A DNA stretch of 62,833 bases, the filler included, from Hausera hauseri (Eukaryota), in NCBI GenBank assembly GCA_046269625.1. It is 10 parts of 10 records of this genome, joined end to end, with 100 filler letters (N's around TTAATTAATTAA, not from the genome) between each part and the next. Parts side by side here need not be neighbours in the genome. Positions count along the whole stretch, not along the records: positions 20,513 to 31,632 come from JBJURY010123317.1; 9 more parts are not named here. One strand, given 5' to 3'. The translations under genes and the position numbers were made by a program. Position 1 is the first letter of the stretch, and each line of letters begins with the position of its first letter. Of this stretch, positions 20,513 through 61,079 are shown piece by piece. The notes under the pieces are model-generated. The model was not told where the DNA came from. It did not search any database and saw only the letters and a program-made list of their open reading frames with translations.

Positions 20513-20601
20513 ATATTTCCCATTTCCAAATCGATATTTATTTCCAATAATTTGTTATCAAAATATAAAATTCAAAACAAATCCAAACTAAACACGCCAA
20601 A

Positions 20602-21308
20602 TGTTATATAATTGCGGTGACCCTTACTCAACTCCCACTATACAACAGTAATTTCACTTAAAGTTTCAAATCTTACCAGGTTCGGTCTATTCGTAATCGA
20701 ATAGACAGAATGTACCTTAACAATTTTAATATTGCTATGAAGGTAATTGATTGCCGTCCTGTGCCGATAGTTAGATTGTTCTCCCTTGTCTATGAAGTTT
20801 AAGTATCAATTTATTCTTAGTGACGTCAAATCACCTTTTAAGGGACGATGGAAATTATATGCAGATTAAAACAAAAAGGAGAAAACTTTACCGAGTACTT
20901 TAATTTTCACTACACGAATGCAATTTCTGATTATCAGTCGAATCAACAACACAAGGGAAAGTCAATCAGTAATTCAATTGTTTCAATGTTTGATGCACAA
21001 TCTCGCAAGTTCTTACGTTCTGATTTTCTCTCCAATCTTCTCTCTTTTTATATAGTTTGAATTTCATAATTAATTTATTTCACAACGATTTTTATTCAAT
21101 TCCTCCAGAATACTTTCTCAATAGAACTCGATTCTACACATAAAATAATTTATTTTCGGACTACAATTACATTTTATTGCTTCAGTGCAATTTCAATGAA
21201 CGATATAAATAATAAATGGTAATTTTGATTAAATATTTATATTACATATACACATCTAATGCCGTTATTCTTATACCATCCTTTATGTTATCGCCTCTAT
21301 TTACAACA
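20602..21308 (-). repeat. 3' LTR (707 bp, TGTT...AACA) of retroelement A
   Basis: Minus strand PPT AGGGAGGAGAAA (21309-21320) directly followed by TGTTGTAAAT...TATATAACA; TATA-like TATATAAAAA near 21050 and AATAAA near 20812. Confidence 0.8.
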
Positions 21309-23715
21309 TTTCTCCTCCCTGACCGGTATCCTCGGATGTGACCATTGCGCTAAGAGAGGTGCCGTGAGAACGAGGCGGACGTAATATTTCCATACGCCGT
21401 CTTAGGCTAGGCCCAGAACTAGTACTTGGCTGGTTTTCTCTAGGATTTATTTCTAGTTCATAACTATGGTACGGCTTTATTCTAACTATTCTAGTGTAGG
21501 TACCGTTTGAGTAATATTTTAAGTCGGCAGCCTCGGCTCTGCACACAGGACATGTGGTCTTTCCATTATCTAATGTCCATTTCTCTAAGCAATCTCTGCA
21601 ATATTTGTGCTAACAGTCTGGGTTATTTAATATTACGTAATCTTGTTTTAAATTTGCCTCGCATACTGGGCATTCATTCTCTTCTTTCTCCCAATTTTCG
21701 TCGTCTAAGTCGACTCTTAGCATAATTTTGATAGGTTTCACTATCAATCCTTCTTCGTCCTGATACAAATAAGCACATATTCTCTTCTGTTTCGGGTTTA
21801 TGGAACTCTTTTTGGGATCGCATCCTACGGTTATTAGCGTCCAATCGCTGATAGTGTTTCGATCTAAATCGGGAATTTCACCAGTCGATCGGTATTTTTG
21901 ATTTTGTTTCTTTAATAATAGCTTTACTGATATATCCACGGGAACTAAAATTTTGCCATTTCTTCTGGACTGGAATATCGGAGCAACGTATTTCCCGATT
22001 TTAGGATTCTCCCAGACATGAGTATTCTCATAAGCTTGTCTGCCGGGCATTGATTTGACAAAAAACATTGCCTCTTTTATCCTTTGTTTACTGTAATATT
22101 CTGTTGCTATTAACATCCTGGGGTGATCCGCCGTGGTGGCATAGTGTATATCTTCCGTAGAGTTCTTTTTTCTTAGGACGTTTATTTCTGTTATCTGTCG
22201 TTTCTGATTACTCGGTTTTCTTGTGGATTTCACAATATGGGCCTGCATGTCTGTTTTTGATGTTTCTTTTGCTGTTATTCTTGGTTTATCTGGTTGTGTT
22301 GATTTTGAATCTTTTCCGTCTGGTCTGTGTCCTTCTTTCGGTCCTTTTTCTCCTTCTTTACTTTTCTCCTTGAATAAGTAATCGAAAAAGGAGGTTTTCC
22401 TTTTAGTTGTTTTTCCGATTTCGACCTCTGAAATTCTATCTCTTTCTTCTACGTATTTCCGAGGAACTTCTGGTACTTTAAATAGATTATTATCTGTTGT
22501 AACGGCATAACTTGTACTGGGCTTTCCATCTGTACATAGTTTATTCTCCATTTTCTCTGTTTCAATCCTTGGATAGTTATTTGGTAATTCCACTTTGTTG
22601 TGGTCTCGACGCTTCTTGGTGGAGAGTATTGGCGGAAGTGTTTTCTATAACGTGTGCTGATTCCTTCAAGCTTGGGAAAATTTCGAAGGTTCTGTCCGGG
22701 GTTATTGGGAATCCATTCGTGTTCCCATTTTAATCCAGCATTTATGTCCCTTAGATATTGGGATCTTTGGCTAGCGGCCAGAAGTCTGCTGATTTTTATA
22801 TTTCTTCCAGTCATGGCTTCTACCATAAGTTTGAATCTGCCCTCCACAGTTGGTGGTAGATAACATTTCTTTTCTTTGATCTTGATCTCCATTTGTCTCA
22901 TAACAGTCGGATGGGTTTCTATCTTCCTCACTCCGTCTATGTGCGTTACCTGTAGGTTTAATTGCTCTATCATTCGTTCTACCTGATACCCCACTAAGAC
23001 GTATCCGTAGAGGTATTGTGCTACTTCCTGTTGCAACAACTTGAAATCCTTTCCATGATTTGTTCTTTTTTATCCCAGTAACTTCTGCATAAGTTTCTAG
23101 CACTTTCTTTCTCGGATTAATAATTTCCCAATAGACTTCGGCCCCGTTTTCTTCTCTGATGGATATTTCAGTCGGAATATAATTTCCCTCTTCTCCTTCT
23201 ACATAGTTTACTGCGACAATTCTCAGATTCCTGTCATTAGTTACCAATCTAAATGAATGTAGGTGTGCGTCCTGCTCTTCGGTGGGCCTTTGCCTAAACT
23301 CTAAGGACGGAAATAAAATGGGTATTGTCTCCTCTTCAGTTATTTCGACCATTTTTACAGGTAAGGCGGCTACACGAAACTCTAACTCGTAACTATGGAA
23401 ATTCCTGCTGTTAAATACAAACGTGCTAAATCGCCTTTGTCTTCCTTGGAAAGAGTCCCATTTTTGATTCTTCAGTCGATAGTAAATTTCCCCATCTGCC
23501 AAGTTTACATATATCTTCTGTTCCTTGTCCGTTTGGTGCTTGGTGATCTGCTTCAAAGGGTATGCTCTGGCGTCCTTATCCTCTCTCTAGGCATATAAAC
23601 GTATAGCTCTGGCTTCTTCGCTCGTTCCTTTCAAACTCTTTGGTATCTCGCCAACCTTTTAGTATTGAACGATGTTCTTTCCTTGCAATTCTGTATTGAT
23701 TTGCCTATAGATAGC
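21301..23715 (-). pseudogene. LTR-element accessory ORF (about 800 aa reconstructed): REXO4/ISG20-like DEDDh-fold domain, Lys/Thr-rich linker, C3HC4 RING finger
   Basis: Joins ORFs 22771-23556, 22449-23039, 21610-22593 and 21301-21546 through two frameshifts (about 23065 and 22600) and a TAG at 21610. Motifs: EISIREENGAEVYWEIINPRKKV...VTGIK/HGKDFKLLQQEVAQYLYGYVLVGY and CPVC-x15-C*HKYCRDC...CPVCR. Confidence 0.75.
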
Positions 23716-23727
23716 TTTTAAGTTTGT

Positions 23728-23916
23728 TTGGCTACTGCAGCAGAAAGGATAAATCCTGAAGACAGAAGACAAGCATACAACAAACCAATCAATGATATAA
23801 ATGATTGTGGAGATGGATTTATTGAATTCAAAACGTATGAAGAATTAAAATCAATAAAAGGTGCCATCCATAACGACACAATGACAGTCAGATGCCGCGT
23901 ATTGCCATGCAAATGA
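23728..23916 (+). pseudogene. MATH/TRAF domain C-terminal fragment
   Basis: AYNKPINDINDCGDGFIEFKTYEELKS...IHNDTMTVRCRV* matches the end of TRAF-type MATH domains; 5' part is absent and abuts retroelement A. Confidence 0.6.
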
Positions 23917-25959
23917 CGTCACATTTATTGAATGACAAATGGCAGAACAGAATTCATCAATTTATTTATTTGCTATGAGAAAACAAAATTTATTTCCAAT
24001 TGAATCATGCCATCATTTTCAGTGAAAATTAACAAATTTTATCAAATCAATTTACTAAACAAAAATTGCCAAATCCGACATATTCGATTATGAAAAAATG
24101 ATTTATTTTAAAAACAAAATTAGAAATGTTAGAATTTACAATTTCTCATGTTGAATTTGCATTAATTCGAATTGCTGACTCATTGGCCAATTAATCGTCA
24201 TGATGAGTCATTGATATTTACCTTATTAGATAATCATCGATGATTGGTTGGCTTTTGTAAAAATGAGATTTGCTTATATCTGGTTAGTTAGAATGTTACA
24301 TTAGAAGGAGCTGCCGACGGTAATTTGATGGAGTATCGCAGGAATGCCTGTTCCTTTTATAAAATGCAGTAAGAAGGAATTATAGATAACAGAAATGTAC
24401 TCTACGAAATGAGTCATGTACTCAATGATATGTTTGCGTTCAGAGGAAATTCGATTGTGAGATTGAAAAATAATTCAATTGAAATATTCTGACGGTAGAC
24501 AGGAAGTGGATTTTTATCGAAATATCGAACTGATTTCCGATTTTTATCAACTAGAAAAGAAACAATGCATAAATACACTCAACCTTTCATTTTATCATGT
24601 GCATGGGGAACATGACAATGACACACACACACACACACAGTCATTTTATAATTGAAATTTTCATAAACGAACTATATAGTTCAATAAAATTTATTTTACC
24701 ATCAAATATTTATTGCTAAACATCCTTTCGATGATTTATATTTTATCGATTATGACAAGGCTCCACAAGAATCGACACATCAAATTTAATTTGTTTCATC
24801 ATTTTACGGGTGATGTTGGACTGCAAATTTTACTAAAATACCAAAATTGTTATGTATGCCATATTTGTATGGGGTATAATGAAGAAGTACCGCGACGTAA
24901 ATATTGATAAAATTTTACAGAAAGAAAAAGTAAACAATGTATCATAAACAACTAATGACTTTATACAAAACCTTAATAACAATGTTCATTCAGCATTTAT
25001 TATCAAATAAAATAATTCCATGCAAACGACCCAACGTTCATTTGTAACTCATTTTGACATTTTACTGTTCACTTTTTGCAACTTACTGAACAAATATTTG
25101 CCAAACATTTTCTCTTTTAGTAATCTTTTTCATGGAATATATCAGAGTCCGTGGAGATCCAGTCGACACAAACATCGTTCCGAACAATATAGACCTTCGA
25201 TCCTTTAATTTCTGATATGATCTTCCGATTGAATTTGTTATACTTAGACAATGATAACTGTGTACTATTAGTCGGTATCATTTAGACATTCTTTCCAACT
25301 TTCATTCATTTCGGCTTCAAATTTCTGTCGCAACATATTTCTCCATGTTCCTTGTCGTTTATGATAGTAAACCATCATCGAGTGAGGTTTTTTTGTCTGA
25401 TTTTAGGCAATTCGTCTTGACTACCTTTGACATCGTGTAACATCTTTTATGTCTGGAGAATCTGATTTGTTCATAGAGCAGTCTTTGTTCAATGATGTAC
25501 CATTGTGTATACATCTGTTTACATCAGAGAATTTAACGTCACCAACATATGACAATCTTGATTTTCTATGATTCGTTAATACTGTTGCTTGAAATGTGAT
25601 ATTGGTGAATGACCCTCGATAGAGTAGACAGTATGAATTGTAGTGCCGTGATCACGGATACAACTCGTGCCCTCACTAAAATGGCAACAGCTGCATTCAT
25701 ATTTAGTCGTACGATAGACGAACTCATAATTGGTCTGGCTCGATGTCCAGACGAAAGGCTGAAATCCTCGCTGTTTTCTCCATGATCAAAAATAACTTTA
25801 CAAATTTCAATCGTACAATGGTTGATGTAATCTACCTCATACAAGAATTATAATTTACTCCAATTAACCGCAACTTCAAGTCGTTTTCCGAAATTAGAAA
25901 TTCACCTCCATGTAATTCGAAGGAACTCTCAAGTGATGACCATTGTACTACCATTCTGT

Positions 25960-26300
25960 CGATTAATCCCAGCAGTCATCATAAGCCATTGTTTTATGTG
26001 GAATTTCGGTTTGTATTTCAAAAAAGGCTTTGCGGAGTATTGCTGCACAACCAATTGAATGTTATTGGGAACATCTCAACTATTCGTGATGTTTAATTTC
26101 TCTTCTTCTGGATTTGACCCCAGGTTTTAAAATCCAGACATTCTTAGAATCGTCCATATCAAATTCAAGATAGCTCGACCATTTTTGCTTTGTGCTATCA
26201 TTAGCGACATCCCCAATTCTGTAATTTTCGTAAATAGCTGTTAGGTATTAAGCCAAGAATCTTTTCAAGTTTCTATCACAATGAAAGTGAATTAATTGCA
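25960..26300 (-). pseudogene. TTLL3/TTLL8 tubulin glycylase fragment, intronless and decayed
   Basis: MDDSKNVWILKPGVKSRRREIK...LVVQQYSAKPFLKYKPKFHIKQWLMMT parallels NIWIVKPGAKSRGRGI...VVQKYIERPLL...KFDIRQWFLVT. Confidence 0.75.
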
Positions 26301-26494
26301 GTCAAAATCCTCGCGGTTTTTTACATCTGAAATGACTTTACAGTAAGAAATGGTCATATTTAGAAACTTATGTTTAATACTGTCTTCATTCTTTTTGGAC
26401 CACAGCATTTGATTCTTGGTAGGACATTCCTTTCCTCTTCAGAATTATCAACACCTCCGAAATATCGTAATATCTATTGTATCCTTAATGAAAC

Positions 26495-31732: not shown

Positions 31733-32779
31733 TTTATATACCAAATGTAATACACTTTGTTTTAATGCATCAAATAAATTAAATGCACTTGGGTGCCAAA
31801 TAGGTTTTCATACAATCGACTAAAGTCATCAGATTCTTCAAATAATGCATGTTTGACCGAATATTATCGAATTTTTCAATGTTTTATTCATTTCGAGATA
31901 CTTGTAAATACTTTGCACACCCAATTTTGGTCTACAAATGTTTTCGGACATGGGAAATCCGATGGTAATGTTTGAATATTTCAAATCGATCGAAAAATCG
32001 GATTTTATGTAAGCCTCTTCGCATATCTCTCATCATATTCGGATTCTCCATATATGGGTTTCTATCTCTCTACGCTTTTAGATTTTTCGATTTTTGCTTC
32101 TGTTCGAATAGAAAATCAATTATTGGAAAAGTTCGATTTGTATTTGAGTTTTCGAATATCTGATGTCAAAATCGGATACAGCACATGTTAGTTTTTATGT
32201 GTGTACGCTTTTATATTTTTCGATTTCTACTTGCTTGTGTGCTAAAATCAACTTTATAGGTTTTATCCGAAAATAGTTATTATTGATTAAAGCGCACTTA
32301 CACATGTGCGACACATTTGAAAAGTGCTACATAGATGCACTAAGACATGGGGAATCGACTGTCTCTCTCAGATTTTTCAAAAAGTTTATGGGTGTCAAGA
32401 TAATCGATACTATTCGGTGAAAATCGATAATTATTCCAGTTGTGCACCGAATTTCGGAAATCTGAGATGGAAGACCCGGGATACAATGTGGAACTTCCTA
32501 TCTGTTTTCGTTTAAACATTTGTTGAATTTTGACTACTTAGGACCTAAAAAGACTACGGGAAGTCTGCACCGGTTGCACTTTGGATCGACATTATTCGAA
32601 ATCGACTCGATCGATTTAAATTCTAATTGCACATTCACATAGTGCATTGTATTTCCAATCGATTGCACCCGGTGCCATGTGCTAATCATCAATATTGGCA
32701 ATATCGGAAATCCGATATTATTGATTTTTGCACACTTGCACATATGATGCGCACCTGTGATTACGAACAACCTGAGTCA

Positions 32780-34440
32780 ATGTCTTCAATGGACTATGAT
32801 GAAGTTGAATCACAATCACCATCTGACGAACGTACAGCTGCAGTGCAAAGGAAAGGAAGACTGAGAGGGAGGGAACGTGCAACTGGAACAGGAAAGAAGA
32901 CTGATGCAAGAATTGTGTGGGATGTTGATTCACTAGATGTCACAGATTCAGATGTGAACTTCGATGGTAGCGATAAGTTGACAGACGAGATAATAGCTTT
33001 TCAGAATCCTTATCAGTTCTTTGAATATCTATGGACAGAGAAACTGAACAGCTTGAATTCTGATGAATCCATTCTGTGTGGAACTCAGGAGCATCTGGAC
33101 AGACCATCAGTTTACACATTCAGTGACATTCGTCAGTTCATTTCGATTCTGATGTATGATAGTTCAATAATATCTGTTCTGTGTACACGTGTGCTGTGGA
33201 ACAGAAACATAGTAGGTGACAAGGTTTCCAATATCATGTCCATCAACAAATTTGAGGAACTGAAATCTAATATTCATTTCTAATATAATAATTCAGCACA
33301 TAATATCAACTCACCTGACTATGATAAGCTGTTCAAGATCAGACCACTTCTGAATAATCTGCTTGAACGTACAAGTCTGGTGCCATTTGAAGAGCGCTTG
33401 AGTATTGATGAACAGATAATCCTCTACAAGAGAAAATTTTCAATCAAGACATATATGAGAATGAAGCCACATAAGTGGGACATAAATAACTGGGTTCTGG
33501 CCAGTGCAATTGGTTTTGTGTACAAATTTAGAATTTACACTGGAACATCGCTTCCTGTGGATGAGGCAAGTGGTAAACTGGAATGTGGTGCCAGCGGAAA
33601 TGTCGTTGTAAAGTTGCTAAGAGATGTACCACGGAGTGTAGGTTATACAGTGTACTTTGATAACTACTTCGGCTAAGTGAAACTGCTGATTTGGTTGGCA
33701 AAGGAAGGCTTTCTTTGCGTAGCAACAGTTTGCACCAACCGAGTGAAGGAAACTAATGCGCGAACTGATTCAGAAGTGACACGTTTGGGCACAGGCGGCA
33801 TGCATGAAGACATTGCTGCAGTGAACGATATCCCCATAACACTCATCAGGTGGTATAATAACAAGGCTGTTTATTTCCTGTCCATATACATTGGAGCTAA
33901 GCCAGTGGGGACTATCAAGCGCTGGGTCAAGACTTCCAAGGCATATAAGGACATCTCATGCCCTGCAATCGTGGCTGTATACAATCGCTTCACGGGAGTG
34001 TGGACGCAAATGGTATTTCAGGGTATTCACATTCATGATAAATATGTCAGTCGTGAATACATGGTTTTTCTACCACAATCGAGCCAAAGACTCAAGGACA
34101 CAGCGGAGGAATGACAGATTACGCACTGCTCCATTTCAGATTGGAATTGGACAGTACCCTGTCTCTGTTGAGTGTACACCCAGGAGCACGCAAGCGCGGT
34201 CGCAGATAATTGATAGATGAACAGATCCAGAGTCGTGCACAACTCCCACACGTTCCTCATCCGCCAACAAAGGACGTGCGCCTAGATGGAGTGGAACATT
34301 TGAATGTAGTCAACGCGATCAGATCAAAGTATGGTCAATGCTAAAAGACAGGATGCAAATCACGTACTATGTACATATGCTAAAGTGTAATATGTCGATG
34401 TACAGCCAAGACATGTTTTGTTTATTATCACTGCTAAGCT
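32780..34440 (+). mobile_element. piggyBac transposase pseudogene (PGBD2/3-like)
   Basis: PYQFF...MSINKFEELKSNIHF...DKLFKIRP...SIDEQII...KPHKW...VYFDNYF...WYNNKAV...CPAIVAVYNR; Cys-rich C-terminus; stops and frameshifts. Confidence 0.93.
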
Positions 34441-34511: not shown

Positions 34512-34896
34512 AGTAAGTACTACTATAATGATAAGTTTAGAGGTTCCCTTCTATATTTGTGTTTGGTTCAACCAAAGAATTTTTGTCTGATTTAGAACTA
34601 CTCCTTGCTGAATCAGTGCGTGAAGTTGCAATATTAGCCTTAACTCTACTACGAGTGTTATACGCTCGTGTGTTTCCTCATTCGGGGCACCAGTGATAAG
34701 TTTATAGGTTAAGGTTTATTGGTCTTACGACCTTAAACTTATACTCTTTACTTAAAAGCTTGAGTTCTCTCCTTGTCTCAAGCTTGATTTACTTTATAGA
34801 AGTAATCAGCAACCTGTGGGCTTGCTGATGTCTAGGTTTACTTTATTTAATTGGGCTTAGTGTGTGAGCTCCGTCAGGAGGTACACTGACGTTACT
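34512..34896 (-). repeat. Candidate 3' LTR (385 bp, AGTAA...TTACT) of retroelement B
   Basis: Minus strand AAGGGGG directly followed by AGTAACG; ends ...CTTACT; AGT-type termini as in the gypsy/17.6 lineage; internal AATAAA near 34715. Confidence 0.6.
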
Positions 34897-35399
34897 CCCC
34901 CTTACTTAATAGATTTTAACAACCGTCCGGAAGGGACGGTATACCAAATAGGGCCCTGTAAATTGAAATTACTTTTCCTACTAAGATATAACCTTAATTA
35001 CTTAAAATTTAAGTTTACAATATAAACAACAAAAGAAATAATCAATCGACAATATATACTTTAATTCTTTAAAATAGTACGATCAAGAAAAGATATACAA
35101 GAAAACAATAAAAATTATACTCACATCCATTCATGTTGATCATAGCAATGTAATAGTCTTTCAACAGCAATTACAGCAATTATAATTATTATGGTATGAA
35201 TGAAGATATACAGCAGTATATATACTGTCAGAAGGTATACAAAGAAAACAAAATAAATAAAATTCAATTATTCTAACTGAAAAATAAATAAAATTCAATT
35301 AAATGTTTGATCAATCGATCAAAGTTTATTTAATTTCAATTTCACAGAACTTCAAGCAATTAGTAAGTCTATTTGTCTTTCTTCAGAATTTATTTACCT

Positions 35400-36239
35400 T
35401 CAATTTAGGCCGGTATTTCGAACATCTCCCTCCTCAGACGATGCTGTCCTCAGCATCAAGGGATAGACTTCAATAACTCCATTTGAATCTTGGTAGTTAA
35501 CCGATTTGATCTGGAGACTTCTTCCTTTCTTTTTAATTGTCTTTCTTAAGGTAATTGTTTCTGATCTGGGGATTTTCTTTTTATTCTTTGATTTTTTTGT
35601 TAAATCAACGAAGATGGATTCCGAGGAACTAGCTAGCACTAAGGGTTTTAAATCTATATGACATTCTTTTATTGTCGGAATTGAGACTGGCATCACTTGA
35701 TCATTAGACATTGACTGGTTTGGTATTGATTGATTAATTTTAGGCTGGGGTAATATTTGTTGGGTATTTAAACATACGGATGCCATCTGAGTAGGCGCTA
35801 TCTGGGTAAGTGCCTGTTGAGTTAATTCTGGATCTTGAATTTTCATAGGGGTGATATCATTCTCAAGGTATTCATTTTTATATTCCGAAATAGTATTGTA
35901 AATCTTCGAAATAGTCAAGGCTTTATCTTTCGTCTTTTGTGGATAGACGCCATCATTATATTTCATAATAAGCTGTTTTGCAGTGTATTCTTGTAAGGGA
36001 TTGATTTCTTTGTGTTGTCATAATTCTCTGATACCAAGAAAATAATTATAGTCATATCTGAGGGTGGTTGTAAACATACGATATACATCAAGACCGACTA
36101 CTACTTTGCCAAATATTGCCTTCCTGAGATGGGGTTCCTCTTCATAAGAGTCTCTTTGACCAAGAATATCAGCTTCTTTTAGACCAGTAATATGGCTATT
36201 ATAATTATGTATTTTTTCTCTTGGGGTTAAAATTTCATC
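35400..36239 (-). pseudogene. LTR-element accessory ORF: REXO4/ISG20-like DEDDh-fold domain plus Gln/Pro- and Lys-rich tail (5'-truncated)
   Basis: From the contig end DEILTPREKIHNYNSHITGLKEADI...LRKAIFGKVVVGLDVYRM...GIREL, then frameshift to YTAKQLIMKY...KTKDKALTISKIY; ends in PPT-like GAGGAGGGAGA-TGT. Confidence 0.7.
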
Positions 36240-40030: not shown

Positions 40031-40503
40031 ATGCTAATGAATGATGTAAAGATTATCTTAACAGACGAAAATGCCTTTGTGCCGAAACGTGTTACACAAA
40101 CAGCGCAGGCTATGGTGTGTTTTCCCATGTCAATACGGCAATTTCGAACAGAACAATTAAATGCATAACTACTGGGATTCGATTGGCTATTCCACCCGGT
40201 TACTACGGCCAACTTTTATCAAAAAGCAGACTGGCAAAACTCGGACTGACGGTTGTGGGTGGCGGCGTCATTGACTTGGACTTTCGTGGTGAAATTAAAT
40301 TGTTGCTGGAAAATCAATCCGGGGAGCCGTATGCTTTTTCGAAAGGCAGTGTAATGGCACAAATCGTTTTTTTTCGATATGAAGAGGCAGAATTCAGTGT
40401 AATGTCACCGGTACAATGGGGATTGTTTTGTGTCAATTAAGCAACACGAATTGAACGCAAAGCATTTGGCTTTGGTAATATAGACAAAACCACCTATGTT
40501 TAA
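40031..40503 (+). pseudogene. dUTPase (trimeric type), Polinton-borne
   Basis: TGIRLAIPPGYYGQLLSKSRLA...GGVIDLDFRGEIKLLLEN...MAQIVF; frameshifted N-terminus and degenerate motif V. Confidence 0.9.
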
Positions 40504-40580
40504 TTATTGGATGAAAATAATAGTAGTAGTTACTTGTTTTTTTGTGTTATAAACAAAAATGATTTTGTACATGAAAAGTA

Positions 40581-40926
40581 ATGGCGATAGGATTTATAGA
40601 TATTGAAGGTTTCTAAGATGATAATGCCCGGTATATAATAAAGGAATTGTGCATTTTAAGCGTCGGTAACATTTTCGAACTGCTTGTGTACGTATTTAGA
40701 CCTGGTATTGTGTGGAATGATCAGGTAGAAAAGGCAAAATTTACAAACGAATTTCACTTTCGACATCATAATGGACTTCACTGTTATGAAAGCGATTCAA
40801 TTTTCTGTGTGACGTATATTATTGGAGAGATTTGTGAAAGTTTTGACATTGAAAATACAATATTTTACAAAAAAGATCAAATTTACGGACAAAAGTTTAC
40901 ACAACTACATTCACACTTTCCCGAGT
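40581..40926 (+). pseudogene. Polinton-associated DEDD-family nuclease
   Basis: FIDIEGF*...YIIKELCI...VFRP...W...N.F...HHNGL is the pattern of the Polinton DEDD-like ORF. Confidence 0.7.
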
Positions 40927-41026
40927 NNNNNNNNNNNNNNNNNNNNNNNNNNNNNNNNNNNNNNNNNNNNTTAATTAATTAANNNNNNNNNNNNNNNNNN
41001 NNNNNNNNNNNNNNNNNNNNNNNNNN
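40927..41026. other. Artificial contig spacer
   Basis: N44-TTAATTAATTAA-N44. Confidence 0.99.
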
Positions 41027-51090: not shown

Positions 51091-51953
51091 GTAAATTTGA
51101 CAAATTATTTAGTTGTGACATTTTATTAAGTGACAATGGTATTAACTTTGCGAAATTTAAACAAAAAGGTGGTGGGAATAATGAAACCACGACTGCACCA
51201 ATTTTTCCACCCAATAAAATTAGAAATGACTCAATAAATATTCTGTACCAGTAAAATTATGCAAATTTATAATGTAAACTGTAACACTGGATCCATTATT
51301 TCATTGGACAATATTATTTTGACTACGTTCTGTTGGTACTCGCACTTAAACGAACATCATCATTGAGTAACCGCGTTTATCTGAAAAGAAACAAAAATTT
51401 GCAGCATCATTCTCATTGAAAATAAATTTTTATCTTTCATTCTTTTGTGATTCACAGAGAGACATGATGAGATTCTATAATTTTTCTTATGTGTTAATTA
51501 CCCAAATGAAACGGATGTCATCCGACTTAGACATTCAAGTTGTTTGATCATGATGATAAAATGCATTATAAAATGAGTTAATGAATAATCGATAAATTTA
51601 TAACAATTTTTTAAATTGATCTAATGATAGTATGTAGGCATTGTATTCATAGAAACTTTTTAATTCATTTATAAATCCCCTTCCACATACCATACTTCAT
51701 GAAAAAATTGTTGGCCTCATTCTAAACACAGTATCATATATTCATTCTTTCAATAAAAGGTGCTCAAAATTTAAAACAGCAGTTCTCAGCAATGTTACAA
51801 ATGCTCAGAAAGATTCATCAAGACCGTTTCTATTTTTGCTGAATTGTAATGAAGTGCTGTTCATTTAAACAGAAATGTTATGTTAAAGGGTTGTCATTGT
51901 GTCATCATCAGTTCCACTAGTAAAACAATCATCTTATTTTAATTCGCTGACAG

Positions 51954-52174
51954 GTTGGTGTGGCCAGCACCCAGAACCCAAAACTTCAGGGTAAACCTTA
52001 CTACATTAAGGACAAAGGTATTCTCAGTATTCTAGATCCATATCTGAGCATCACTCACAGAGACCACCACATGTTTACCCCATCTGAATTAAAATCTTAT
52101 GCAAAGAAAGATATTCCATCCATGGCTGAGTGTGAGAATTATACAAAAGCCTGGGGTCATGGCCTTCACCACAA
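51954..52174 (+). CDS. Internal coding exon of an unidentified metazoan protein
   Basis: CAG acceptor, GTAAGT donor, open frame VGVASTQNP...YYIKDKGIL...DPYLS...YAKKDI...KAWGHG. Confidence 0.6.
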
Positions 52175-52859
52175 GTAAGTGCAGATTGTTGTTTTTCTTA
52201 CATGATTTGTTCCATTGTTATTTAATGGTATTTTTTGTAACCTCAGTCAGTAGCTGTTTGCAGTTGGTTGAAAGATTACAGAAAAAGAAACTGTTAGCAG
52301 ACATGTGATGTGGTTCATGTGTAGCACCGAGTTCAAACATTAAAAGCTAGGCCTATCGTTGTGGCTCAGCGACATAAACCACAATACCAGTGGATACTTT
52401 TGTGAGGCTATCTGAAATCGCTAAAGAAAACAAGTATTCACTGACGCACATTCAACGAATGAACTTACTTGTAGCCCTTCTTGGTCCCGAGGAATCTGAT
52501 GTGCTGGGAGAACTTTGTGCTTGAGAACTAGAACTCAATGCTAAACGCAGGGAGGAGAGCATGCGTTCAAGAAAATGTCATGTATTTAATTTATAACATG
52601 TAAAAATATGATAAACTTACAGCCATCTATTTCATCCAATCTGTTGGCAGCCTCTCTTAAAAGATGGGACACAGAACGGTGCGATGAACATGCCATTGTT
52701 TCTTTCCTCACATCCACACATGAAACATCGAGTTCAGCTCAGTCAGCGCGCATGGATTTACTAATAGCGCGTACTTCTTCTTGTTCTTGTGGATTGACGG
52801 TTGTCAAAAAACTGAAGGTGTGCATTACTGCCACCTACTTATTAAAGCTAAATCAGATT

Positions 52860-52930
52860 TTGCAGCAGCTGTTAGCTGTAACCAATCAGCTCCAATCAGC
52901 TGCAGCTGCTGTGAGGAGGATTTAAAGCAG
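52860..52930 (+). promoter_or_regulatory. Promoter of the teleost gene: two CCAAT boxes, CAGCTG E-boxes, TTTAAA TATA-like box
   Basis: CAGCTG...ACCAATCAGCTCCAATCAGCTGCAGCTG...GATTTAAAG about 85-140 bp upstream of the ATG. Confidence 0.55.
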
Positions 52931-53006
52931 CTCCTGCAGGTTGCAGTCAGTGTCAGCAGCTCTGAGCTTTGTGTTGGTGCAGTCTGTCAGTGTTCCCTGC
53001 AGCAGG

Positions 53007-53689
53007 ATGAGGTGAGCCACTTCCAGTCTCTAACAGTGTTTCTACATGTTCTAACATCAGATGATCCATGTTGACCTTCTGCTCTGAATGTTCCTGCAGG
53101 ATGTTGTGGATTTCTTTCCTGCTGATTGGAAGCGTCATCTGCTTTCCTCAACAACAACAAGGTGAGTGTAAACAGGAAGTGATGTGAGCAGGTTGTAGCT
53201 GATGCTGACTGTAGATGTTTGTCCTCAGCCAGTGGAGGTGGGCAGCCCTGGTGGTGGTCTGTTTCATCTTCTGGACATGATCCCTCCAAGCCGAGTGATG
53301 AGAGAGCTGCAGGCCAGTCTGGTGGTTCTGGCAGCTACAGCAGCTATCCAGGACTGTACTACAGCGGTACCAACACTGGTTCTTATGGGGTCCAACAGAG
53401 TGGCCCTCAGGACAGTCAGCAAGGGGCTCCAGGCAGCAGTGGTCCTTACCAGTCTACAGAGGAGAGCTGGAGCTCCTCCTCAGATACCAGCGGTGAGGAC
53501 GAGCCGGTCTTCACTCCAGTAGAGGACGAGGATCAGGTCTACGCTTTCAAGTCTCGCTCGCGCTACAACCGCAAGCGCCTGTCATTCAGTCAGTTCCGCT
53601 ACACCCCAACAGAACCACGTTTCTCTGGGGATCCAGGATTCCCTGAACCAAGACCTCAACCACAAGATCCAATCAGGGGAAAGTACTGA
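53007..53689 (+). CDS. Teleost-type secreted Ser/Gly/Pro-rich protein; exons 53007-53011, 53100-53161, 53229-53689
   Basis: Canonical splice sites give MRMLWISFLLIGSVICFP (signal peptide)...DEPVFTPV...VYAFKSRSRYNRKR..FSQFRYTP.EP; AATAAA near 53726. Confidence 0.8.
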
Positions 53690-54463
53690 GGATCCATCAG
53701 TCTGTTGCTGCTGACTCTGATGCATAATAAAGGACTTCTCTGCTTGTAAATGAGGTTTAATTTTTTTTTTTTCCGTCTAGGTGTGACTGCTACTCAAGTA
53801 TTTATATTGTTTATACTTTGTGCTGCAAACTTCTCTCAAGGAGGACTGCAGTCTCATTGTTTGCAGATTGTCATTACTCGTCTCTAAGGTGTTATGTTTG
53901 ACTTGGTGTTTTCCCTCAAACTGTAATTGGAAAATTCTCCATGGCACATGCTGAACAAAATTTAGTGCTGTTCAAGTGAGCGTAATGTCACTCATGGCTA
54001 AGGCCTTTTAAGCCACTTATTTAAGATTGGACTATTTATGGCCAACCCTCTGCATCCACATACAAATGGCGTGGGTAAGGGAATGGCACCTTTTCTGTGA
54101 AAGGCCCTACACCCATCACCTCCAGTCTGGGCTCTGCTTAAAACATGTGGAAGCTTTAAAGATTAATATGCAAACATATTTTCAGTATTTGGTTTATCGC
54201 AGGAGATGTGGCTAAAACTCATGGAAATTAAACAATCTTGAACCTCACTCTAGGTGGCAGTAATTAGTTTGCCAAATGCCATTAAAGGGATCCCTGATTA
54301 GTTGTAACAGACTTTATTTGATAAACATTTAACTGTAAAATAGACTGTAAAAATATTGTAGGTTTTTTAGTTTTGTAAATTTTTAAAAATATTAACACGG
54401 ACAGAGCAATTTTATTTACATGCAAAGCATTCTGGGTAAATGATGACGTGGGTAGGTCATCGG

Positions 54464-55289: not shown

Positions 55290-58200
55290 GTATATACCCG
55301 CTCATGTGCGTAACCGGTTGAAATCAGAGGTGGCCAAATTCCGACAATACCACTGCAAAGTGCAATATTACGCATTTGCAGAATTTGAAAATCTGCAGGG
55401 TGACAGGAAACAATGGTACCTGTAACATCCAGTCTTACCATACTCTGCGGATTTTATTGCCGACGTAGGCGAAAAGCTTGATGAAAAAATCTCCAACTAC
55501 GCCGAAAAGGGCAATGGTTGGAAAATTGTAAAGATTGTCACGCGCAGCTTTATTCTAACCAAGATGAGTGACATGATTTACCTGTCCGGACGTTCATTCA
55601 AACCGACACCTGCATCCTTGAAGCAGTATCTGGCGGTAGAGATTGTACGAAATACAAACGACGAATACGGCTTTATTTACAGCATTCTGGCCATATTGAA
55701 ATATGATCAAGTGTCCAGATATCATGCAAATTGTCCAAAGCAGTACAGTAAGTATTTCTCAGAATTGGACTACGACCAGTGTTTGATGCCCATGAAACTC
55801 AAAACCATTCCGGCTTTTGAACGGCATAATCTGACACTGGCAATCAACATGTTCCGGTACAACACAATCGTAGAAATACCAGCAGACGAAGAGATATACA
55901 AAACCCACACGTGGATAAAATTTATCGCAATCGGAACCCGAATGGACGCTCGGTAAATTTGTTGCTGTAGGAGCAAGCAGATAAATTTTACTACGTGGCA
56001 GTAACCAATTTGGACAGACTGCTGAACATGGATCACCACCAATTCATCAAAAGGCGTATGAATTGTAAATAGTGCACCACATGTCTGCATGGTTTCAGGT
56101 CAGAAACGACATGGGAAAAACATGTGGCGCTGTGCAGACAAAATTCATCAGGGACAACAATGTACGTCATGCCAGTTAAAAAGGAGCTGAGATTCAGTGA
56201 CTGATCGAAAACAGACAGTCCGACGTATGCGGTATATGCCGGTATCGAGGCAATTCTACCGCGGCACAACGTATACGAACAAAAGCACATTCCAACTGCC
56301 GTCGGTATGTTGTTTGTTCCAATAAAAGCCGCCGGACAACGGCAATATTACGTTTTTCATGGCTGGAACTGTATACGCGATTTCCTGCAACAGTTGGAAA
56401 CGATAGTGTAAACGGAAATCGCATAGTGGTACAGTAACGATAGCACTAAGCCCTTGATATGGACAGACGAGTATGAAACGCTGTTTTTCGATGCCACCGA
56501 TAAATGTTACTTCTGCCACAAATTTTGCCTTTGATGCACAGGAACGGCACGTACCGGACCATGATCATTTCACCGGTCTATACCTGGGAGCAGCATGCAA
56601 CGCATGCAATTTAACAAGGCATGTGCGGCAATTTCTACCGGTGATCTTTCATAATTTCCGAGGTTATGATTGTCACCATATACTGAAATGGGCCATCAAC
56701 AGATTTCCGTACTGAGAACTGTCCATAATCCCATCAACAATGGAGAAGTACCTGTCCCCGTCAGCACGCATAAACTGGTTCCAGGTATGCTACCTTGATT
56801 CATTGCAATTTCTCAATGAATCACTAGCGAAGCTGGTAAATGCCGTACCGGATGTGCCGATAACCTCAACGCAGTTCCCCACATATTGCAAGCAGCAAAG
56901 GCATATTTCCATATGACTTTGTAACATCATATGAGCGACTCCGCACAGCAGAGAAATTACCGCCGCGATGGACAGGCATCACAGAACTTGAATATCAGAG
57001 AGTACAAGAAACTTGGACAGAACTCGGCTATAGAAACATGTTGGATTACATGCTCCAGTATCTTAAACTGGGCGTGTGCTTATTGACCAATGTGTTCCAG
57101 GCGTTTCGAGCAAAAGCGTTGGTGGAAGATAGGCTGGAGACACTCAACTTTTACTCAATACCCGGAATGAGTTGGGCATCAGCTCTGATGTCGCTGGATC
57201 GGGATATCGAGCTATTGCAAGACGATGAAATGTACCGAAAGTTTGATGTTGGTATTAGTGGCGGCATGACATATGTCAACAAACATCACGTAACCAGTGA
57301 TGATACCACATCACTGTTGTATATCGACATTAATAACCTGTACGGCTGGGCGCTTTCATAACCCTTGCCGCACGGTTCATTCGAATGGGTAGTCGACAAA
57401 CAGGACCTGGACACAATATTGGAAAATGTGTCAAGAGCAGACACGACAACAGCAGAAAACAGCTCAATCGGATACCTGATGGAGGTCGATCTCGTGGTAC
57501 CAGATGAGCTGCATGACTTTTTGGATGAACTGCCAGTCGGACCAATTAGCCAATGTCCACCGGGCTCGAAGGTGAAGAAGCTGCTTATGATGCATGAACC
57601 CAATCAAAATTACATAGTTCATTGGCGTCTGTTACAATTTCACATGCCGTTGGGTGTACGCGTCACACAGCTGCATCGTACAATCCGATTTGCTCAGGCG
57701 GCCGTATTCAAGGCGTACATAGATGGAAATTCGGAAAAACGAGCCGCAGTTTCTACAAAGTTCGAAAAGGACTATTACAAACTGAAAAACAATTCTCTGT
57801 ACAGAAAAACAGTGGAGAATCTGAAAAAGCGGCTCAATGTACGCCTATGCAATGGCGAAAAGCGGTAGGTCACGTACTCGAATAAGGCGCAGTTTCGGCG
57901 GTCAATGCACATTGTCGATGGATTGGTTGCGGTGCTTTTAAATAGAGAAGTCGTTCTGGACCGGCCAAGTTACATCGGACAAGTGGTATTGGACCTGAGC
58001 AAGTTGCGGGTGTATGAGCTGCAGTATCGCGATTTGGCACTTTACCGGCAAATGTTCGGTGGCGGCAGCAGGATCACTATAATTGCCGGTGACACAGATA
58101 GTTTTTTCTTGTAACTGGAAATCGTCATTCGCGAACAACCTTTGCAGAAAATAATGGCAGACGGATTACTGAACACGTCCAATTACCCAGAGAATTATCC

Positions 58201-58812: not shown

Positions 58813-59824
58813 CCTGTCAGCTGCTGTGTCCAGTGACATGACCTATGCCACACTTATATATTTAATCACTTCCTGCTGGACTGAGTTAAAATGGACCTCT
58901 ACATTTCTCATGTGTATTTTCCTGTCATCAGTAAATAATAGAAATACATTTTGACTGTCTGCAGGTGGAGATCTCTAACACGGCTTCATCCTTGTTGTCC
59001 TCCTCCTCTTCATCCTCGTCATCCTCAGGAGATAAGAAGGGCAAAGGTCGAACAGGCTGGCCGCAGCATGTCTGGGCTCTGGAACTCAAACAGTAGCCCC
59101 CCCCCCCTCACCCCCATTATGTCCATGACAAATTCTGTTCCCTTCTTACACCACAACACTTCTTTCCTAATTTCCAAAAATGTCGCATTAATGATATCAT
59201 TTCTAGTGTGTTATTGTGACAAAACAACATATGATGAAGGAACAGGTAGAGGAATTGGCTGGTATTGCTTTATTATAAACAATTCTTACATCCACAGATA
59301 TAGCTGATTCACACTGATTTATTTCATAGATATTTGTTATCTGACTTGCTGCAAGAGGATGAAAAAAACTCCTACTCTTGAAGTTCAGCATGAACACATA
59401 TGTAATGATATTTTTGTCAATGTATGTGTTAGAAGTAGTCCAGGCTGACAGACGTTCCTTTAGAAGAATAATACAAAATCATACGCTGATAACACATTTA
59501 AGTTTCAAGTAGGAATTATTGTCACTGCACTCCTGGCAGACCCATAGGTTCTCAGATCTCCTCCTCAGAATTTCCCTCAGTGTCCATCAACTGAAAATTT
59601 CAGTTCGGTTTTGGTTCGAGATCCTTCTGGTGTTTTCTATGTATTCCTCAGCCTTTGAGGTTCCATGCTTGACGCCGTCGATACTGATTTTAATACCTTA
59701 TTTAATATTATTACTATTTAAAACCCTGTGGTCGTTAACTCACATGCAATTTTTTATTCATACAAAACATACTATTTTCCGTAAAGTTGCCTTTCAGAAT
59801 TATTTATAAGCATAAGACACTTAC

Positions 59825-61070
59825 CTAGAAATGACAGCTGAGAGCAGGTGCAAACAATTCCATTCCCTTCAAGTTTCAGCATAAAATACCCAACGTTTGC
59901 CACGTGATTATCTATAGCTGTCATCTCCTCATCTGTGAGACTTAAGACTGCATTCTGAGTAAGATCCAGAACCTCTAATTTCGGAGTGGATTGGATGTCA
60001 AAAGGAATTTCTGAAAATCTATTTCTTGAGAGCACCAAAAACTGTAAATTTGGAGTTGATTCGAAAGTGTCCGTAACTAGTGAGTTTAGTTCATTATTTG
60101 AAATGTTGAAATGTCGAAGATTTGTCATGTTACTTAATAACCGTTTACAAGAAATTTGCTTAAAGAAATCGTCTGGTTTAACGGCACTGAGGATGAGCTT
60201 CTCCAATCGTGGGAAATAATCCCAAAACGTGTCGCCAACTTTCACTAAAGAATTGGTCAAATCCACACTTCGTAAGTTGCACAAGCCTATCAATGGTTTT
60301 GGACCAGAAAAAAGCATTGGCATATTACGTGCGGAAAATTCTTCTAGTATCTCACCATTTGTAACAAGAATAGTTCTACTCATGCTGAGGAAATTGTGAT
60401 AGTTGAAATTGTCTAATTTTATGGATATTAATTTCGGTGGAAGACGAATTGATATCACTTCTTCTTTCTGAGAAATTGCGTAGCTGCACTTATTTACTGC
60501 TTTCTCAGTTGATAAATCAGAAAGAGAAATCATAAAATTATTTCTATTCTCGAAATCACTGGTATTTCTATAATTTTGTGGTTTATAGATTTGTTTAGTA
60601 ATGTCTACATCTGCGATATTATTGTTGTCTTTTGCTTCCTCTTCATTCAATCCTTTAACTGGTAAGTTGTCACTAGTTACTTTCACTGGAAAATCAGAGA
60701 CACGAAGCGTCTTGTCCGTAGTAGGCTGTTCTGGAGGACCAAAAGGCCGCAAAGCTACAATTCTCTCTAAATGAGGAAAACGTACTGCCGAGTAAGTAAA
60801 GCTCTCCCATCCTAAAATATCTAAGGGATTCGATGAAAAATCTACCGTTCTCAGACACCGCTTAATAGTCGGTGTTACAATAGCTATAGGATGAATCGCA
60901 TATAATTTGCTATGACGCCATGAAAAGTTGACAATGCAGATTTTACCTAAATATTCAGTTGCATTTCTATATATAATCCCGTCAACAAATATCTCGACTG
61001 GAGACCTGTAGTGGAAAGCATAATTGACAAATAAGGTGATCCAACTGGATTTTGTGCAATAATTACACAA
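59825..61070 (-). CDS. Leucine-rich-repeat receptor ectodomain exon (invertebrate Toll-like receptor type)
   Basis: Tandem LxxLxLxxN repeats and LRR-CT start (GNGIVCTCSQLSFL), then GTAAGT donor at 59824. Confidence 0.75.
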
Positions 61071-61079
61071 TATTCATTC

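Follow-up and report, generated by a model that had tools for sequence, protein, structure and literature searches.

The broken last gene of an LTR retroelement in Hausera hauseri and an intact homolog that joins an exonuclease-like domain to a C3HC4 RING finger

Viral RING E3 ligases include ICP0 of HSV-1 and the poxvirus protein p28, in which a C-terminal RING stands behind a nucleic-acid-binding domain, while the vertebrate protein PML-1 carries its RING at the N-terminus, within a TRIM scaffold. The PXL pseudo-exonuclease of PML-1 binds G-rich RNA and DNA (PMC13659232, PMC10123124). In rotifers, LTR elements encode ORF3s that are DEDDy exonucleases with intact catalytic residues (Rodriguez et al. 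2017, PMC5408684), and the main text of that paper describes ORF3s as typically produced from spliced messages (PMC5408684). The giant Burro elements carry RING-related, BIR and MATH cargo (PMC6431247), and another article, which cites Lee et al. 2026, ascribes RING plus BIR cargo to Burro1 (PMC13465017). The available text of PMC8532177 holds nothing further on domains. The literature searched, with subscription journals, Repbase and Dfam outside its scope, yielded no description of an LTR element in which an exonuclease is fused to a RING.

We analysed a window of 62,833 nucleotides, filler included, from Hausera hauseri (assembly GCA_046269625.1). Because the window consists of 10 contigs joined by N44-TTAATTAATTAA-N44 spacers, neighbourhood across the spacers is meaningless. 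Its AT-rich DNA and what lies beside it point to an invertebrate animal as host. On the minus strand of the contig at 20513-31632 (JBJURY010123317.1), we find the broken, non-functional last gene of an LTR element. We consider it reasonably probable that this dead 3' gene has intact kin encoding a predicted nucleic-acid-binding pseudo-nuclease with a ubiquitinating RING, directed at host targets.

The sequence-only reading had assigned the ORF to the extreme 3' end of an LTR element, and its position is borne out. The LTR (20602-21308, minus strand) measures 707 bp, starts with TGTTGTA and ends with TATAACA (TG...CA, with a 6-of-7 terminal inverted repeat), and contains a TATA-like box near 21052 and an AATAAA at 20815. 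Immediately before its TG lies a polypurine tract (PPT) of 12 bases (21309-21320, minus strand); the ORF reads across this tract and on into the LTR for 8 bases, up to the end of its stop codon (21303-21301). At the other end, TATAACA is followed by TT and then by TGGCG at 20599, which opens a PBS-like sequence (20580-20599, minus strand); the window holds no tRNA able to assign it. The TG...CA LTR, the PPT and the PBS-like sequence together mark an LTR retroelement, and the boundary is backed by other copies in public sequencing runs, which part from the window sequence just past the TGT of the LTR, the pattern expected of related elements with different U3 regions. The family is dispersed and multi-copy, with 2748 contigs of run X1 aligning on 20520-24400, and the bin that contains the PPT (21300-21429) has the greatest X1 depth of the whole stretch. 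Since a PPT precedes and a PBS follows one and the same LTR, either the element stands in tandem here or the assembly has taken a path across the LTR. Only one LTR is present: there is no second copy of the 707-bp sequence in the window and no target-site duplication in the contig, from which the element's 5' part is missing. Nor does the contig contain gag or pol, including a linked pol in PR-RT-RH-IN order by which to assign the element to Ty3/Gypsy or Burro. Upstream of the ORF, repeated non-coding sequence (23786-24160, minus strand) extends to a point near 24160 where depth drops, with no gag or pol beyond. Decayed pieces of a tubulin-tyrosine-ligase-family gene (TTL, E 3.9e-4) lie upstream of the element, at 25830-26440.

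The gene is spread over four minus-strand frames, here A to D. A full HMMER search of 1.84 billion proteins with frame B (query 22452-23069) gave two matches, P0001 and P0002, of which the second, a repetitive protein, was dropped as spurious. P0001 (870 aa, ENA, a singleton encoded on a 16,242-bp contig), the single intact protein that forms the homolog basis of this work, is collinear with the window, with identities of 87/228 in frame A, 56/166 in frame B and 158/334 in frames C and D. Its alignment delimits an N-terminal beta-rich domain (23236-23718), which two stop codons (23587-23589 and 23659-23661) interrupt; frame C (21613-22550), with a charged linker, a conserved middle domain of about 175 aa and the first half of the RING; and frame D (21301-21609), with the second half of the RING, a short conserved segment and a low-complexity tail that runs via the PPT into the LTR. 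One frameshift lies near 23035-23075, and a second, from frame B to frame C, within 22345-22550, P0001 matching frame B as far as 22551 and frame C from 22344 onward. Three stops, counting the TAG at 21610-21612, and two frameshifts thus leave the window copy dead.

Because the intact P0001 is collinear with the four broken frames, the fusion of exonuclease-like domain and RING is a trait of the family. The fusion proposed by the sequence-only reading therefore stands for the family, but not as such for this copy, in which the exonuclease-like domain lies outside the ORF flanking the RING, about 1-1.5 kb upstream and in two other frames, and is cut off by the two frameshifts and the TAG. P0001 and the window ORF end in six identical residues, encoded in the window by the PPT/LTR junction, which suggests, at the level of protein sequence, that P0001 has the same junction. 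Just upstream of where the P0001 homology begins, a pyrimidine tract with an AG at 23757-23756 forms a candidate splice acceptor (23756-23785, minus strand), a call made from sequence alone.

Few further relatives were recovered. Word-seeded protein searches gave no match for frames C and D (3455 candidates), for frame A against longer proteins (1221 candidates) or for the RING region (9 candidates), and no locus among viral contigs carried frame B or P0001. The sole metagenome locus, a gene with a RING and Cys-rich repeats of a presumably TRAF-like pattern, was set aside as unrelated, with only 28-34 RING residues matching. For the middle domain, no family was found with Pfam, a fold model or the atlas, and residues 565-742 of P0001 had no usable atlas match. 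Fold models of the C-terminal 299 aa (pLDDT 30.6) and of P0001 55-420 (pLDDT 37.8) were of low confidence; the N-terminal domain of the latter gave cupin/jelly-roll matches with Z under 8, a weak lead towards a cupin-like fold, and the structure search with this model barely probed the exonuclease part.

The RING finger (21541-21672, minus strand, with the TAG inside it) is real, and the C3HC4 assignment made from the sequence has held up against profiles. With X at the TAG, it exceeds the Pfam gathering cut-offs of zf-RING_2 (36.4 bits against 27.3, E 6.4e-9), of zf-C3HC4 (30.2 bits against 21, E 4.1e-7), the profile that had been proposed as a check, and of zf-C3HC4_3; the RING of P0001 is uninterrupted and likewise passes its gathering cut-off. 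All eight zinc ligands, with C3-H-C4 spacing, are kept in both proteins, and the closest PDB matches are RING E3 ligases, for example RNF38 and RNF4. Also conserved in both are a Val, a Trp, a Pro and an Arg that we take to be the E2-contact and linchpin residues typical of E2-binding RINGs, and their retention fits an active ligase. Relative to P0001, the RING is the best-conserved part (33/46 identical), with the middle domain next (77/166). Pfam, searched up to an E of 1, showed no BIR domain in the window frames or in P0001, and it found no MATH, BCL2 or ankyrin domain in P0001.

The partner domain (22715-23235, minus strand), split over frames A and B, has weak matches to the DEDDh/DnaQ-like exonuclease fold. 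With P0001 55-420 as query, a PDB search up to an E of 10 gave just two matches, the exonuclease domains of DnaQ (E 2.6e-4) and PolC (E 1.1e-3), and a small profile returned PolC, SDN1 and DnaQ (three matches, E 0.43-0.8, none significant alone). The top atlas matches for frame B were RNase_T clusters (0.90), with only 139 of 256 features shared, and the RNase_T label is carried by 19-65% of the members of the clusters nearest to it. Pfam detected no exonuclease in P0001 or in the window frames, and frames A and B taken singly had no Pfam match and no relevant PDB match; the first frameshift falls inside the domain and the second after it. In the DnaQ alignment, which covers Exo I and Exo II and leaves Exo III outside the aligned part, the D and E of Exo I and the D of Exo II are replaced, with identical substitutes in the window and in P0001, so that three acids of the DEDDh catalytic set (D, E, D, D, His) are gone. 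Because they are missing from both proteins, we regard a DEDDh-type pseudo-nuclease as the very probable identity of this domain, and such a loss would fit an RNA-binding rather than an enzymatic role.

How could such a protein work? The gene would be expressed separately from gag-pol, probably via a spliced message like other ORF3s, with 23757-23756 as the candidate acceptor. The pseudo-nuclease may then bind the element's RNA or cDNA without cutting it, and the RING would recruit an E2 and ubiquitinate proteins gathered on the bound nucleic acid. The targets could be host restriction or silencing factors, which is the least supported step; an anti-silencing role is a tentative idea that we would sooner doubt than assert.

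Alternatively, the RING might serve the element's own cycle, through self-turnover, oligomerisation or particle trafficking, or the survival of the host cell, rather than act against silencing. Since no result of ours names a substrate, there is room for such a role. Survival would recall the RING plus BIR cargo of Burro1, reported to protect stem cells against apoptosis (PMC13465017), and an own-cycle function would recall the RNA 3'-end or RNP roles suggested for DEDDy ORF3s (Rodriguez et al., PMC5408684). However, P0001 is without a BIR domain, both proteins keep the E2-contact residues and the linchpin Arg, and an exonuclease-like ORF in a second family lacks the RING, which points to an add-on and not to core machinery. 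We judge an own-cycle or survival role to be fairly unlikely, though a live rival.

This second LTR family lies at 34692-36239, where the exonuclease-like ORF reads through a PPT and ends inside a 731-bp LTR (35424-34694) that is followed by the PBS-like TGGTGCCCCG. The ORF resembles P0001 (30.8% over 78 aa, E 2e-6), has one internal stop and contains no RING, and the two LTRs of the window are unrelated to each other. Because this family keeps the ORF without the RING, the RING seems to have been added to an exonuclease-like ORF3 of wider occurrence. A piggyBac-like transposase remnant (32627-34111; DDE_Tnp_1_7, E 1.2e-18) adjoins the second LTR element.

Further sequences of note lie elsewhere in the window. 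A decayed element on a separate contig (18560-20412) has a piece of a Monjiviricetes-type fusion glycoprotein (E 1.5e-6, slightly below the cut-off) upstream of RT-like remnants, recognised by eye with no Pfam match, and of an integrase core (rve, E 5.8e-10); this env-before-pol order is as described for planarian Burro elements, and the contig has no link to that of the RING. Pieces of a protein-primed polB (DNA_pol_B_2, E 1.4e-7) together with a dUTPase (E 7.9e-18), at 55426-57865 and 40045-40979, are inferred to be Polinton or adintovirus-like remnants. At 1-1200 and 51900-54463, teleost-like DNA is joined to AT-rich DNA within contigs, possibly through a mixed or chimeric assembly of host plus parasite or food; the teleost-like DNA includes a DUF1373 ORF (53183-53686, E 7e-38), a domain that we associate with fish. 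An intronless leucine-rich-repeat ORF of 433 aa (59775-61073) presumably resembles a Toll-like receptor ectodomain.

It might also be argued that the RING gene was captured from the host and is a neutral passenger of a non-autonomous LTR element, since its contig has no gag-pol and the amplified part of the family looks non-autonomous. Against this, frame B has no cellular homolog (1 true match in 1.84 billion representatives), and the PPT/LTR junction supplies the end of the ORF, in the window by its sequence and in P0001 as suggested by the six shared residues. The variation among copies also speaks against neutrality. On 21540-21690, where 194 contigs of run X1 align, 17 of the 24 variable sites outside the TAG codon fall on third positions (p = 2e-4); the four that lie in ligand codons change the third position and preserve Cys or His. 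Selection in the family thus maintains an open RING frame, and the third-position bias, seen across many repeat copies, shows that it acts while the gene is mobile. A neutral passenger is accordingly very unlikely.

The TAG itself (21610-21612, minus strand) falls between Cys3 and His4, and the peptide quoted in the sequence-only reading is found as described, with the TAG in frame with both flanking ORFs (21613-22644 and 21301-21609). It is the sole stop within the 447 codons of frames C and D. In run X1, other letters account for 290.1 of the 404.5 depth at this site (72%, 16 contigs), and the remainder is a single exact contig, record 6, of depth 114.3, in which 29 and 67 letters flank the TAG, slightly below the bridging rule. 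The TAG is kept in this contig, in record 9 of X2 and in record 17 of X4, that is, in three of four runs (X5 does not span it). These pieces are near-identical, and the TAG is not strictly private to one copy. Whether the stop is shared or copy-specific thus has a divided answer, as a sub-lineage shares it and most of the X1 depth differs from it; the earlier idea of a point mutation in this copy survives as likely nonsense decay and fails as to its restriction to one copy. The TAG is a derived state, and decay rather than programmed readthrough is its likely cause.

Plain single-copy decay is nevertheless an insufficient explanation, because the TAG lineage, whose X1 depth of 114 far exceeds the 4-12 of the other contigs listed, has seemingly been amplified. 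The letters of the window reach X1 depths of up to 132 or more at its 3' sites (20520-22476; 8 of 8 among the sites listed), and have a median of 14, with two zeros, at its 5' sites (22805-23798; 31 among the sites listed), a contrast drawn from 39 of the 40 rows shown from a table of 996. This looks like amplification of the sub-lineage to which the 3' part belongs, with a private 5' part, or else like a mosaic contig. The upstream frameshift is apparently common to the TAG sub-lineage, and record 20 of run X3 has no gaps over 22393-22643. On the simplest view, the TAG marks a non-autonomous sub-lineage that has been amplified. The codon would be a nonsense change that became fixed in a non-coding lineage, and this lineage probably spread in trans.

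Programmed readthrough at this site, setting the dose of the form with the RING, could explain why near-identical pieces in X1, X2 and X4 share the TAG and why no other stop interrupts frames C and D. Yet functional members of the family do not share the stop, which is replaced in the 16 X1 contigs and absent from P0001; it splits the zinc ligands; and its context, TAG-CAC-AAA, is unlike the readthrough motif UAG-CAR-YYA. Since, moreover, the apparently shared upstream frameshift already severs the RING from the rest of the protein, we consider readthrough, which the sequence-only reading had offered as an option, highly improbable. There is practically no likelihood left that the RING was inserted separately or arose as a motif by chance, as P0001 refutes this by being collinear on both sides of the RING, no indel is listed over 21540-21690 in any of the four runs, and the C3HC4 pattern has a single match among the window's six frames and none in 60 Markov-resampled windows.

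The product of the intact gene is predicted to bind nucleic acid and to ubiquitinate host proteins. It is tempting, if rather unlikely to hold in full, to picture a mirror image of PML-1, in which an element-encoded pseudo-exonuclease would bind the element's own RNA or cDNA and a RING E3 would destroy the silencing proteins that arrive there. Were this true, a retrotransposon would encode a nucleic-acid-guided counter-defence ligase, and RING-dead, non-autonomous derivatives would spread in trans. Among the accessory genes of animal retrotransposons, few can be assigned a biochemical function, and a conserved pseudo-nuclease plus RING protein is a concrete, assayable candidate for the way in which an LTR element could counter or steer host control via ubiquitin. 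The natural intact homolog P0001 makes both E3 and binding tests feasible.

Two types of cargo previously described apart, the exonuclease ORF3s of rotifers and the RING cargo of planarians, are linked in one gene. Like ORF3 of the bdelloid rotifer elements Juno and Vesta (PMC5408684), it occupies the 3' slot of an LTR element as an additional ORF, and its weak matches point to the DnaQ-like exonuclease fold that those ORF3s encode. However, the Juno/Vesta ORF3s are DEDDy/RNase D-like with intact catalytic residues, and their main text describes no RING (PMC5408684), whereas the family here is DEDDh-like, has lost three catalytic acids and carries a C-terminal RING within an 870-aa protein, which sets it apart from the bdelloid DEDDy type. 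With the planarian Burro giant Gypsy elements, it shares RING/ubiquitin-related cargo in an LTR element (PMC6431247, PMC13465017). In Burro, however, the RING is reportedly accompanied by an IAP-like BIR, the listed cargo includes no exonuclease (PMC6431247), and the protein described here has a RING without BIR, MATH, BCL2 or ankyrin domains, and so is not the IAP-like cargo of the Burro1 B-IAP type. The likeness to ICP0 and p28, drawn by description only, is that of a C3HC4 RING encoded by a mobile element, although these two belong to DNA viruses and not to an LTR element. Finally, like vertebrate PML-1 (PMC13659232, PMC10123124), the family probably unites a RING with a DEDDh fold that is catalytically dead in a single protein. 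PML-1 is a host restriction factor, whereas the protein here is element-encoded and has the reverse domain order, and the likeness is limited to the shared folds.
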